From contig OZ240248.1 of the NCBI GenBank assembly GCA_965198235.1, positions 4,672,001-4,736,000 on the forward strand: a stretch of 64,000 bases of DNA, read 5' to 3'. Positions 26,412 to 38,341 of the stretch are shown piece after piece. Under the pieces are notes generated by a model. It was not told where the DNA came from, searched no databases, and saw only the letters and a program-made list of their open reading frames with translations. A program made the position numbers and the translations under genes. Position 1 is the stretch's first letter. Every line of letters begins with the position of its first letter. Origin of the DNA: Candidatus Poribacteria bacterium. GTDB lineage: Bacteria; Poribacteria; WGA-4E; WGA-3G.

Positions 26412-28022
26412 ATGGCAAAAAAGAAATCAGGCACAAACACCAATAAAAGCGGTGCAACGCTCGGCTTTGAAGCGACTTTATACCAAGCAGCCGATAAGCT
26501 CCGCAACAACATGGATGCTGCTGAATACAAGCATGTGGTGTTAGGGTTAATTTTTCTCAAATACATATCAGATTCTTTTGAGGAAAAGTACAATTTTCTG
26601 CTTCAAGAATTTGCGAATTCCGACAGTGAATTCTATATTAAAGAGGAAATCGACCGTTTCGAGTATGCAGAGGATAGGGACGAATACTTGGCAGAAAATA
26701 TCTTTTATGTCCCAGAGGAAGCGCGCTGGTCATATTTACAGGCAAACGCCAAGCAACCAGAAATTGGCACCCTGATTGATAACGCAATGCTTGCAATTGA
26801 GCAGGAAAACCCACGGCTCAAAGGTGTTCTGCCCAAAAACTACGCACGCCCAGGACTTGACAAGCAACGCCTCGGTGAACTTGTTGATCTCATCGGCACA
26901 ATCGGTTTAGGTGAAGAAGAGAATCGCTCAAAGGATATACTGGGCAGGGTTTACGAATACTTCCTTGCACAATTTGCCAGTGCCGAAGGCAAAAGAGGCG
27001 GGCAATTCTACACACCTCGCTGTGTTGTGCAGCTCCTCGTTGAGATGCTCGCGCCATATCAAGGACGGATTTACGACCCGTGCTGCGGTTCAGGCGGGAT
27101 GTTTGTTCAGAGCGAAGCGTTCGTCGAAGCACACGGTGGGCAGCGCGATGATATCTCTATCTATGGGCAGGAGTCTAACCCAACCACGCGGCAATTAGCA
27201 CTGATGAACCTCGCTATTCGAGGCATTGAGGCAAATCTCGGACAGGAACACGCCGACAGTTTCCATGACGATATGCACCCAGACTTGAAAGTCGATTACA
27301 TTCTCGCCAATCCGCCCTTCAACAGTAGCGATTGGGGCGGTGACAGGTTACGTGAAGATAGACGTTGGGTTTACGGCACTCCGCCACCCGGCAACGCTAA
27401 CTTTGCGTGGGTGCAACACTTTATCTATCACCTTGTTCCAAACGGCATCGCTGGATTCGTGTTAGCAAACGGTTCAATGAGCAGCAATACTGCTAACGAA
27501 GGCGAAATTCGCAAGAAAATTATCGAAGCCGACTTGGTGGACTGTATGGTTGCATTGCCCGGTCAGCTTTTCTATTCTACATCAATTCCTGTCTGTCTCT
27601 GGTTTATTGCAAAGAGCAAACAACACCATCATTTTCGCACGCGAACCGGCGAAACGCTATTCATAGACGCTCGCAGCTTAGGAACCATGATTGATCGGAG
27701 GCACCGAGAGCTCACTAATGCAGAGATCACGCGCATTGCCGAAACCTATCACACATGGCGAGGCGATGTGGATGCAAGCGAATATACCGACGTGCCCGGT
27801 TTCTGCAAAAGCACAACCCTCGCAGAGGTAAAAGAGCAGGGTAACGTCCTAACTCCTGGACGTTACGTCGGTGCAGAAGTGCAAGAAGAAAATAGCGAAC
27901 CCTTTGAGGACACGATAGCACACTTGACTAAGAAATTGACCGAGCAGATGACAGAGGCAAGGCGATTGGATGATGCTATTGCTAAAAATTTGGATATACT
28001 CGGATTTGGAGAGGATTCATGA
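26412..28022 (+). CDS. hsdM: Type I R-M methyltransferase subunit
   Basis: [21 protein letters not shown] (motif I), NPPF (motif IV, m6A). Confidence 0.97.
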
Positions 28023-29812
28023 ATTTCAGTGATGAGAAAATCAAACGCCAAATGCGCTTAGGCGAGGACAGTCACTGGGAATTCAAGGAAATCGTGTTCG
28101 CAGGAGACGTTCCGAAAAGTCCCAGTCGTCACGATCTGGCGGATGAACTCGCCGCTTTTGCTAACACGGATGGCGGGGTGGTCTTGTGTGGTGTAACCGA
28201 CGGCGGCGATGCCCATGGCATGTCACGCAAGCAGATGGATGCGCTCGAGCAACTCTTGACCGAAATTTGCACCGATATGGTTAAACCGCCAATTCGACCT
28301 ACCATCCTTCGTAAGGAAATAGAGGAGGATAAGTCGTTCCTCTTGGTTGAGGTCGGTCAGGGACATACGCAGCATGATAGTCCCGGTGGCAGTTATCACC
28401 GAGTTGGTAGCTCAAAACGCAAAATGACGAGTGATGAACGATTGCGTCTGGCACAGCGGCGTGGGCAGGCACGCTTCCTATGGTTTGACAAACAGCCGGT
28501 CCCGGGAACAGGTTTTGGAGCGTTGGATGAATCCCTTTGGAAACCTTTGTTGAGTGCTGAAGGTGCCGCTGCGCCTGAATTGGCATTGGAGAAGATGGGA
28601 CTCCTGACCAGTGACGAGAACGGGACTCTGCGCGCTACCGTGGCAGGTGTTCTATTGGGCACCCGTTCCCCCGAGGAGTGGCTCCCCAACGCCTGCATCT
28701 CTGCAACCTGTTACCGTGGCAAAGACCGCGCCTCTGGACAAATAGACACTCAGACAATTACCGGTCCCTTGAACCGACAAATTGCTGAGGCGGTTGCCTT
28801 TGCTGTACGTAACATGCGTGTCGGTGCCTACAAAAACCCTGCGCGCACCGACTTGCCCCAATACAGCGAAAAAGCACTGTTTGAAGCGATTGTCAACGCT
28901 GTTGTCCACCGCGATTATGCAATTCGCAGCAGTCAGATTCGGATATCAATGTTCGCTGACCGGATTGAAATAAACTCCCCCGGTGGTTTACCAAACAACC
29001 TTACGATTGATAGCATGGATGTCCGACAATCAACGCGGAACGAAGCACTTGCTTCGAGACTCAGACAAATACCTGTTGGAGATATCCATGGCTCCGGCGA
29101 GCGGCAATTCTTCATGGAGCAGCGTGGGGACGGTGTGCCAACGATCTTTCGTGAAACGAGGGGTTTGAGTGGGAAATCCCCCAAGTACCGCCTCATTGAT
29201 AATTCAGATCTGTTTCTTACTATTCCAGCCGCTGAAACAGAATCTACACCTGCAACCACTGGTATTCTTGTCCATTACAATAGCAGTCCGCTGCCCGGAG
29301 TTGAACTATTGGTCTTGTTTCCGAATAAGACATGGAAACGCGCAACCACCGACGAAAATGGCAAAGCACAAGTCGATTTGCACATGACGCACCTTCCGAT
29401 GACGGTGTTCGCGTCCGCCCCCGGTTTTGCTGCACACCTTGAACACGATTGGGTGCCAGAACAGGCGGAACTTGAAATTAAAATACAAAGCCTCCCAGAT
29501 GGCGGGTCGGTAATTTTCCCCGAAGCAACAGGTAACATTCCAGGGTTATCTGGACGTTTGAATCCTACTCGCGATACCCAGGACCGGACCTATCTCTACG
29601 CCTCAAATATCGCTATTAACGAAGGACAACAGCAGCCTGTTACTTTTATTCCTGGAGACGATTTACACCTAACGGATGCCAATGGAAGAGAATTGATGGT
29701 GCGCATCGTTGCTATCATCGGCAGGTCGGCATTGGTCGAATATCGTGCTGATACCAAAGGAGATGAAAATGACAGTGAAAGAATTAGTAAAATTTCTCGA
29801 AAAATATCCTGA
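28019..29812 (+). CDS. Schlafen/AlbA_2 + HATPase_c_4-like protein with beta-rich C-terminal domains
   Basis: [47 protein letters not shown] overlap with hsdM. Confidence 0.85.
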
Positions 29813-38200: not shown

Positions 38201-38341
38201 AAGGAGAGTGCCCGCGCGAAGATACGAGTAATGGTGAAGCGCACCCTTCGCAAACACCGCTACCCAAGCGACAAACAAGCGAAAGCTACCGAAACCGTTT
38301 TGGAGCAGGCCGAAGTGTTGTGTAAGGATTGGGCAGCGTAG
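35267..38341 (+). CDS. hsdR: Type I R-M restriction subunit
   Basis: PD...IELK nuclease motif, [18 protein letters not shown] and QAIARVNR. Confidence 0.97.

Follow-up and report, generated by a model that had tools for sequence, protein, structure and literature searches.

The subject of this analysis is a cluster of eight co-oriented genes at 26412–38341, on the + strand, of a 64,000-nucleotide stretch (the window) taken from the genome of a sponge symbiont, Candidatus Poribacteria (assembly GCA_965198235.1, contig OZ240248.1, positions 4,672,001 to 4,736,000 of the forward strand). In the open reading frame (ORF) listing of the window, the genes run in the order hsdM, Schlafen-GHKL ATPase, a small ORF, hsdS, SEFIR-X (its product is called X below), SEFIR-ABC ATPase, DUF4276 and hsdR. 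Judging from the predicted proteins, this is apparently an intact type I restriction-modification (R-M) operon with other genes set inside it. An earlier note on this DNA had described hsdM, hsdS and hsdR as interleaved with five co-oriented genes, and that description holds, with all eight genes on the + strand at or near where they had been placed. Domains and systems were called through Pfam and PADLOC profile searches of the window proteins, which upheld every one of the domain identities proposed in that note. The features are listed below.

26412–28022, + strand: hsdM, type I methyltransferase, 536 amino acids (aa) (Pfam N6_Mtase 6.3e-109, HsdM_N 1.7e-25; PADLOC MTase_I 9.9e-222)
28019–29812, + strand: Schlafen (AlbA_2) plus GHKL ATPase (HATPase_c_4) protein, a "Schlatpase", 597 aa (Pfam SLFN_AlbA_2 4.5e-19, HATPase_c_4 3.6e-19)
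29763–30011, + strand: small ORF, 82 aa (ATG preceded by AAAGGAG)
30040–31347, + strand: hsdS, specificity subunit, 435 aa (Pfam Methylase_S 6.4e-26, in two stretches; PADLOC Specificity_I 2.6e-98)
31327–31648, + strand: SEFIR-coding DNA repeat, copy 1 (repeat search)
31331–32842, + strand: SEFIR-X, 503 aa (Pfam TIR_2 7.4e-24, SEFIR 3.9e-16; PADLOC bSEFIR 1.3e-78)
32961–33282, + strand: SEFIR-coding DNA repeat, copy 2, forming the 5' part of the ATPase gene (repeat search)
32965–34635, + strand: SEFIR-ABC ATPase, 556 aa (Pfam AAA_21 3.4e-30, TIR_2 4.8e-27, AAA_15, SEFIR; PADLOC HEC-01A 4.3e-153)
34598–35248, + strand: DUF4276 protein, HEC-01B, 216 aa (Pfam DUF4276 4.8e-32; PADLOC HEC-01B 1.7e-84)
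35267–38341, + strand: hsdR, restriction/translocase subunit, 1024 aa (Pfam HSDR_N, SWI2_SNF2, T1R_D3-like, T1RH-like_C 3.5e-133; PADLOC REase_I)

The three hsd products are complete in their domain content. HsdM has both N6_Mtase and HsdM_N; HsdS has two target-recognition domains and covers the Specificity_I profiles nearly end to end; and HsdR combines a nuclease N-terminus (HSDR_N) with an SF2 motor (SWI2_SNF2/ResIII), a T1R_D3-like and a T1RH-like_C domain, aligning to positions 4–1024 of the 1029 in the PADLOC REase_I profile. Genes are packed tightly, and the gene overlaps noted earlier at 28019–28022 and 31331–31347 are present as described, while a third, at 34625–34635 (11 nt), requires a GTG start for the DUF4276 gene, the ATG at 34598 giving 38 nt instead. 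This start is ambiguous between the two codons, and most aligned orthologues have Met at the GTG position. The small ORF, formerly given as an 80-aa protein, has a best length of 82 aa from the ATG at 29763. For the ATPase gene, the start at 32917 (572 aa) proposed earlier gives way to the ATG at 32965 (556 aa) as the most likely one, because the 120 homologues listed are nearly all 553–562 aa long (mostly 556) and because the DNA duplication described below begins 4 nt before this ATG. The operon is flanked in the window by genes for AccA, DUF711, cupin and sulfatase proteins upstream and for STAS, DUF6807, oxidoreductase and GGT proteins downstream. These are housekeeping genes, so the operon is a discrete insert of ~12 kb and not part of a larger island.

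The embedded modules

The first embedded protein joins an AlbA_2 domain with the E-x4-(D/E)-x-K motif to a PF13749 GHKL ATPase domain, which makes it a Schlatpase; the motif definition is that of preprint 10.64898/2026.05.29.728809, which, like the other papers cited here, is drawn on for the parts of its text that were available. An E-x4-E-x-K motif, an AAFAN box and an ExxxN motif can be read directly in the translation. In PADLOC, the protein matches only pAgo-associated profiles. A sub-threshold CarboxypepD_reg match in Pfam (0.0022) points to a possible beta-sandwich after residue ~415. Orthologues were found to be stand-alone proteins of 580–585 aa in 16/16 loci checked (584 aa in 13 of them), compared with 597 aa in the window, where the usual stop seems to have been lost, so that reading continues for 50 nt inside the small ORF (29770–29812). 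The available text of the same preprint describes Poribacteria type I R-M operons in which the Schlatpase is stand-alone, HsdS-fused or Argonaute-fused, and reports ATP-driven tetramerisation and tRNA cleavage for Schlafen-Argonaute. The Schlafen-HsdS fusion, which that text places in one Poribacteria operon, was absent from all 16 loci checked here. Bacterial Schlafen fusions are described as defending through tRNA cutting in the accessible part of PMC13056530, and the window Schlatpase would be an ATP-dependent tRNA nuclease.

The second module, X, begins with a SEFIR/TIR-like domain (residues 1 to ~148), followed by an all-helical C-terminal domain (~178–503). Its closest solved relative in sequence is the Bacillus cereus SEFIR chain 5y8e (2.5e-27), with TIR chains at 9e-5 or weaker, and the fold agrees with this, superposing on 5y8f (B. 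cereus SEFIR) with a VIA Z of 19.5 and a root-mean-square deviation of 2.3 over 142 residues. We therefore assign the domain to SEFIR, even though Pfam TIR_2 (7.4e-24) outscores Pfam SEFIR (3.9e-16). The AF2 models have a pLDDT of 92.4 for whole X and 96.8 for the C-terminal domain alone. With the whole-X model, Foldseek (in the rows shown) and a wide VIA search returned SEFIR/TIR chains only; the C-terminal domain belongs to no Pfam family, and PHROGs and NCBIfam gave nothing useful for it. The family is large, comprising 964 cluster representatives at E<=1e-30, with proteins of ~500 aa, and residues E85 and D39 are invariant in 82/82 X-family sequences. Ten proteins have SEFIR domains 51–67% identical to that of X; their partner regions are TPR plus pentapeptide repeats, a cyclase-like domain or regions of no recognised kind, and an ABC ATPase is the partner in none of the ten. 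According to the available text of the Millman preprint, bSEFIR (Bacillus sp. NIO-1130) is a single-gene defence system, and substitution D40A at the SEFIR-SEFIR interface abolishes defence; bSEFIR is also described, in the text at hand, as depleting NAD+ by means of the SEFIR domain at its N-terminus. In X, the fast-evolving helical C-terminal domain would sense a phage cue, upon which the conserved SEFIR domain would hydrolyse NAD+.

The third module is a pair. In the SEFIR-ABC ATPase, a SEFIR domain (residues 1 to ~148) precedes an ABC ATPase of HEC-01A type (~157–556), whose core matches HEC-01A (PDLC04182) at 4.3e-153 over profile positions 2–404 of 406 (residues 172–557 in the 572-aa numbering). 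Across 40/40 SEFIR-ABC sequences, there is no variation in Walker A, the signature motif, Walker B or the H-loop. The adjacent DUF4276 protein matches HEC-01B (PDLC04202) at 1.7e-84 over profile positions 2–201 of 204, and its acidic residues E17, E18, D75 and D77 are invariant in 19/19 sequences. An HEC-01A-type ATPase next to a TOPRIM-like partner with an acidic metal site is the composition of HEC-01 ("Hma-embedded candidate 01"), described in the available text of the Payne et al. preprint as an ABC ATPase plus a TOPRIM protein with a metal site. The excerpted text of PMC12065111 assigns DUF4276 to the Toprim superfamily and describes it as a Mad4 homologue; it also treats RloB as related to TOPRIM and associated with type I R-M systems. 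The earlier note had likened the pair to PARIS AriA/AriB, an identity that we set aside because the partner is DUF4276 and not DUF4435, and because the AriA profiles (6.5e-29 and 3.2e-21) score far below HEC-01A, making the ATPase a relative of AriA and not a member. DUF4435 is the AriB family in the PARIS paper (Figure 6 legend), which in its available part also counts DUF4276-linked ATPases and MADS3-4 as part of the same AAA15/21 radiation. The DUF4276 protein matches 14 PADLOC families, AriB not among them, and the ATPase reaches 122.9 bits against NCBIfam MAD3, with a cut-off of 420.

One orthologous site and the relation to R-M

To see how far the arrangement extends, species-representative genomes were scanned with the fusion protein, and 36 loci were found, from 32 Candidatus Poribacteria metagenome-assembled genomes (MAGs), three Elusimicrobia and one Desulfuromonadales. 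Within the phylum, 133 of 176 genomes have a match at E<=1e-20 to the fusion protein, and among the matches listed, a near full-length fusion at 70–100% identity occurs in 30/176, spread over 4 genera and 2 families. Our locus table holds 81 distinct loci, namely the window and 80 fetched loci (labelled L with a number), 45 further loci having been added to those of the scan, and 77 of the 81 are from Poribacteria; L059 was left out since it is the same 8464-base contig as L016. The earlier note had named conservation of the gene neighbourhood as a check, and the gene order is indeed repeated in dozens of Poribacteria species genomes, a recurrence that places the arrangement far beyond chance. 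Wherever a Poribacteria locus includes enough flank, its neighbours are the same sulfatase and STAS genes, one on either side, and because these flanking genes are constant, we read the series as one orthologous locus with gene gain and loss and not as a mobile island.

This series bears on the proposal, made in the earlier note, that the cassette monitors the type I R-M system and fires when an Ocr- or ArdA-type anti-restriction protein disables it, comparable to PrrC with EcoprrI or PARIS with Ocr. The position of the HEC-01-type pair between hsdS and hsdR, in genes that overlap or are tightly spaced, fits this proposal, as does the kinship of its ATPase with AriA. Three Elusimicrobia loci (L034–L036) have the ABC ATPase and DUF4276 genes followed by hsdR; L035 and L036 also have hsdM on the upstream side, and hsdS was seen in L036 alone. 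Embedded genes are frequent in type I R-M systems, and PrrC is hardly ever met outside them, according to the accessible text of the Payne et al. preprint; a Schlafen-ATPase tRNase within an hsd operon would be a functional analogue of PrrC. Against this stands the persistence of the cassette after the loss of its host. In 8 of the 30 SEFIR-type loci (L003, L005, L007, L010, L012, L051, L053 and L057), hsdM, hsdS and hsdR are gone or reduced to remnants of at most 10%, while X, SEFIR-ABC and DUF4276 are still there in all eight, with the chromosomal site unchanged. The 7–8% stubs of hsdM and hsdR retained in L003 show that deletion started from a full operon. At this site, L021 and L026, which have no SEFIR fusion, likewise keep the ABC ATPase and DUF4276 genes with the hsd genes absent.

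Other observations also count against guarding. Seventeen loci (L065–L081, for example L074:9738-11584 and L076:8720-10556) have a paralogous ABC ATPase, ~70% identical, with DUF4276 following it in 16 and none of these hsd genes; the two that were examined lie among housekeeping genes, including those for PPK2, PhyH, RibD, AhpC and similar proteins. The Schlafen gene shifts position, lying 3' of hsdR in L031 and L032 and 3' of DUF4276 in L005 and L026, and it is absent elsewhere. A physical link between HsdS and the ATPase, suggested by tblastn as one open frame in L015, L017, L018 and L024, was rejected: a stop codon lies between the genes in the L018 translation, on which the rejection of all four rests, and the apparent fusion is a tblastn read-through. 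As separate observations, a Type ISP R-M enzyme lies ~5 kb away in L076, and four genomes hold both a paralogous ABC ATPase-DUF4276 pair and the R-M-embedded one.

Because the cassette persists without hsd genes and paralogous pairs stand alone, autonomous modules that often lodge in R-M operons fit the data better than a physical dependence on this R-M complex does, and the persistence in 8/30 loci gives no indication of latency control by that complex. On this comparative evidence, a guardian role tied obligately to this R-M system is improbable for the cassette. Other R-M systems elsewhere could be guarded in trans, which leaves the guardian proposal weakened, and we regard it as unlikely. 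More generally, embedding alone is weak evidence for the guarding of R-M, since the cargo outlives the host system.

The remaining parts of the operon vary in their own ways. The N-terminal target-recognition domain of HsdS (30040–30370) is replaced in many orthologous loci (query coverage ~0.7), and HsdS identity goes down to 36–44% in some, as expected of specificity switching. The 82-aa ORF has no match in Pfam, PADLOC or NCBIfam, and PHROGs and NCBIfam offered nothing useful for it. It is 65–85% identical in 13 Poribacteria loci, some of them without the Schlafen gene, and an Elusimicrobia locus has one further match, at 35%; the ORF accompanies hsdM and hsdS and is gone where the hsd genes are lost. 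Its look-alikes in the Atlas are hypothetical phage and bacterial proteins of ~80 aa (score 0.91), which we treat as a lead only. Just 5' of hsdM, a 78-aa ORF (26136–26372) has tblastn matches of 49–88% identity in ~12 orthologous loci, spanning 32–88% of its length; it has no family, PHROGs and NCBIfam gave nothing useful, and what is conserved may be a small gene, a leader or a promoter region.

A promoter and terminator scan of 26000–38800 was uninformative, with 20 promoter-like sites against 19.9 and 13 terminator-like sites against 13.7 expected from shuffles. In a sponge metatranscriptome run (X3), contigs cover 30/30 bins of 25500–39500, with no mismatches in the 8 listed pieces, and some contigs span gene junctions; in runs X13, X19 and X20, contigs lie over 17, 8 and 14 of these bins. 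This coverage is a weak hint only, because the library may carry DNA and the contigs show neither transcript ends nor expression levels. In run X19, from a second metatranscriptome study, contigs of a 95–99% identical relative were also seen over the C-terminal region of X only (31882–32732), at stated word depths of 117 and 18, above the rest of the operon in that run.

Origin and role of the fused SEFIR domain

The SEFIR domains of X and of the ATPase are 68% identical in protein sequence over 150 residues. At the DNA level, a 300-nt stretch is 77% identical between the two (31327–31626 and 32961–33260), and a further 20 nt at 90% carries the similarity to 31648 and 33282. A tree built from 122 SEFIR domains puts all 40 that are ATPase-borne into one clade (SH-aLRT 99) and the 11 from Poribacteria X into another (SH-aLRT 99); nested in the wider X family, the two clades join each other and two outside sequences (94). 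It follows from this clade structure that the fused SEFIR is a single local duplicate of the N-terminus of X, and the fusion probably arose by tandem duplication of X followed by fusion. Two loci (L038, L055) have two tandem X copies upstream of the ATPase, a plausible intermediate.

Constraint was compared between segments as dN/dS (NG86, 91 pairs of 14 taxa). The values were 0.07 for the SEFIR domain of X, 0.12 for the ABC ATPase core, 0.15 for DUF4276, 0.19 for the ATPase-borne SEFIR and 0.26 for the helical C-terminal domain of X. The fusion is maintained under purifying selection and is not decaying.

We consider it rather probable, on sequence and comparative grounds, that the locus is a type I R-M operon at a fixed site with three nested defence modules of known kinds, that its HEC-01 ATPase has gained a SEFIR domain derived from X, and that the modules serve as back-ups independent of R-M. 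The R-M system would form the first line of defence. The ABC ATPase would sense a phage trigger and release or activate the TOPRIM nuclease, and the triggered ATPase may also cluster its own SEFIR domains into an active NADase. All three modules would act in abortive infection with no need of this R-M complex. The two paralogous SEFIR domains may also engage in cross-talk.

Several observations weigh against this interpretation. X aligns to the PADLOC bSEFIR profile over its residues 1–267 only (profile positions 35–285 of 412), and its C-terminal domain, modelled alone, has no Foldseek match at E<=0.001 and a best VIA Z of 7.9, to designed helical repeats, with none at Z>=8; this lack of a solved relative does not show a new fold. 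In the available part of PMC13056530, Schlafen-histidine-kinase-type fusions were put to the test and are not among the two defending systems. The HEC-01 homologue that was tested gave no protection in E. coli against the phages tried, as reported in the text at hand of the Payne et al. preprint. In the fused SEFIR, 38/40 sequences have the candidate catalytic Glu and two have lost it, the Asp that is invariant in 82 X-family members is lost from the fused domain in 5/40, and, because it is less constrained than the SEFIR of X, the ATPase-borne domain may not be an enzyme. Many orthologous loci are also decayed, with X frameshifted in L006 and L029 and hsdR truncated in L014, L020, L025 and L028, for instance, which means either that the cassette can do without some of its parts or that errors exist in some of the MAG assemblies. 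DUF4276 is missing in L008, L028 and L030.

A rival reading is that the embedded genes are selfish or addictive, toxin-like cargo stabilising the locus, or relics in decay, and not host immune effectors. The extent of presence/absence variation, the many broken copies of X, DUF4276 and hsdR, and the negative result with the HEC-01 homologue would suit such cargo, as would the turnover of the fusion, for which the ATPase tree requires no fewer than 8 changes of SEFIR state (6 or more on well-supported branches). All five segments are nevertheless under purifying selection (dN/dS 0.07–0.26), the locus is inherited at one site across genera and does not move, and the catalytic motifs are kept, while the literature, in the portions available, links each family to defence. 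Selfish or relic cargo is the least probable of the explanations that we weighed, and we think it very unlikely.

X, SEFIR-ABC and DUF4276 may instead be one coupled system in which the ATPase uses its SEFIR domain as an adaptor port contacting that of X homotypically, so that sensor and ATPase-TOPRIM pair signal to each other. The SEFIR domain of the IL-17 receptor contacts that of Act1, which is a model for such homotypic contact. The fused domain is a paralogue of the neighbour's, and X or its C-terminal domain precedes 29/30 SEFIR-type ATPase genes, with X complete in 26, compared with 7/47 in the other Poribacteria rows. The block of X, SEFIR-ABC and DUF4276 is also kept after hsd loss in eight loci; in L029, the ATPase is without SEFIR and X is frameshifted; the ATPase-borne SEFIR is ~2.7 times less constrained than that of X, which would suit an adaptor over an enzyme; and the interface mutant D40A of bSEFIR loses defence (Millman preprint, available text).

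The association is not strict, however. Upstream of the SEFIR-type ATPase, X lacks its SEFIR by in-frame deletion in three of the 30 loci (L006, L007, L051) and is missing in one (L008). The same in-frame deletion of the whole SEFIR, leaving the first 8–9 residues and then the linker, is found in L006:8702-9864 and L007:8828-9880, and tblastn finds X without its SEFIR part in L051; the ATPase keeps its SEFIR in all three, and X in L006 is also frameshifted. Conversely, X adjoins ATPases without SEFIR in L037, L038, L039 and L040, so X does not need the fused domain, and it belongs to a large family of ~500-aa proteins. Across six independent pairs, X went the same way in 3–4, the opposite way in none and showed no difference in 2–3, which is not significant (p ~0.125). 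A complex prediction for X (82-row alignment) with ATPase residues 1–160 (39 rows), run without controls, scored 0.00 in both runs and gives no evidence either way. We regard the coupled system as possible but would expect it to prove wrong more often than right.

A related pattern is seen in other Poribacteria families (L037, L038, L040, L044, L045, L047), where the ATPase has upstream of it a gene for a protein with HATPase_c_3 and HATPase_c domains. This two-GHKL gene encodes 721 aa in L040 (L040:9458-12567, − strand), is split into two ORFs in L037 (L037:10470-14333, + strand) and stands between X and the ATPase in 5/6 loci. The ATPase of L037 (556 aa, the length of the SEFIR form) bears a weak REC-like domain at its N-terminus; in L040, such a domain is encoded apart, as a 315-aa protein. 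DUF4276 is absent in 4/6 of these loci and about half-covered in L045. A REC-like domain at the same N-terminal position together with an upstream two-GHKL gene resembles a matched sender-receiver pair, which speaks for coupling; the REC assignment itself is weak, at 27.4 bits in Pfam against a cut-off of 30.2 and with a CheY-like PDB match at E 0.025. More tentatively still than the coupling, the ATPase N-terminus may be a swappable signal port matched to the upstream gene, with SEFIR paired to SEFIR-X and the REC-like domain to the two-GHKL protein. Such a port, if real, would mean adaptor-type SEFIR-SEFIR signalling in bacteria, like that of IL-17R and Act1, feeding an ATPase-TOPRIM effector, and PARIS-like ATPases would take input from separate sensors as well as sensing phage proteins directly.

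The locus matters beyond this choice of readings. ABC ATPase-TOPRIM systems (PARIS, Gabija, MADS3-4, HEC-01) are widespread, and their triggers and outputs are known for very few. A natural series is available here at one orthologous site, running from the bare ATPase, through the SEFIR-fused form with a paralogous SEFIR gene, to a REC-like domain fused or preceding with a GHKL gene, each with and without hsd genes. The fusion gives HEC-01, for which no activity has been demonstrated, a candidate second output in NAD+ hydrolysis, and the locus would be a candidate for SEFIR-SEFIR signalling in bacteria.

Comparison with known systems

The earlier note had called the cassette a candidate new defence system. 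Defence cargo nested in a type I R-M operon is what we find, yet "new system" overstates the case because HEC-01, bSEFIR and Schlatpase have each been described already. The modules and their nesting in R-M are known; the novelty lies in the SEFIR domain carried by the HEC-01 ATPase, a lineage-specific fusion, together with its paralogous neighbour. An Atlas search with the fusion protein, over large clusters only, returned AAA_21/AAA_15 clusters of ~400 aa (0.87–0.88), none with TIR/SEFIR, so there is no evidence from those clusters of the fusion outside Poribacteria. We met no description of a SEFIR-ATPase fusion in the literature available, which covered the text of the Payne, Millman and Schlafen papers and not their supplementary tables.

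With PrrC/EcoprrI, and with RloA, RloB and RloC of Campylobacter type I loci, the operon shares the nesting of accessory ATPase or nuclease genes between hsd genes; it differs in having no PrrC-type anticodon-nuclease fusion. PARIS and Mad3/Mad4 of MADS share with the window the combination of an AAA15/21-type ABC ATPase and a small TOPRIM nuclease, but the AriA and MAD3 scores are low, the partner in PARIS is of the DUF4435 family and not DUF4276, and no SEFIR/TIR domain is described for those systems in the available texts.

Like other members of the pSlfn/Schlatpase group, the Schlafen protein has AlbA_2 and the PF13749 GHKL ATPase with its nuclease and ATPase motifs kept. It differs from described members in being without an Argonaute, NACHT or HsdS fusion and in having a C-terminal region of ~200 aa, for which the beta-sandwich match is the sub-threshold one given above. 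X resembles bSEFIR in its N-terminal SEFIR domain followed by a longer C-terminal region, with the Glu and Asp invariant in the X family. It departs from bSEFIR where the match ends, at residue 267, in a helical C-terminal domain without family or solved relative, and in the nesting of its gene in an hsd operon with a fused SEFIR paralogue next door.

The closest likeness is to HEC-01, in that the two genes are neighbours in one orientation and sit as a pair inside another defence system. Here that host is type I R-M and not Hma, and the window ATPase carries an N-terminal SEFIR domain of ~150 aa outside the 406-position profile, preceded by a paralogous SEFIR gene.

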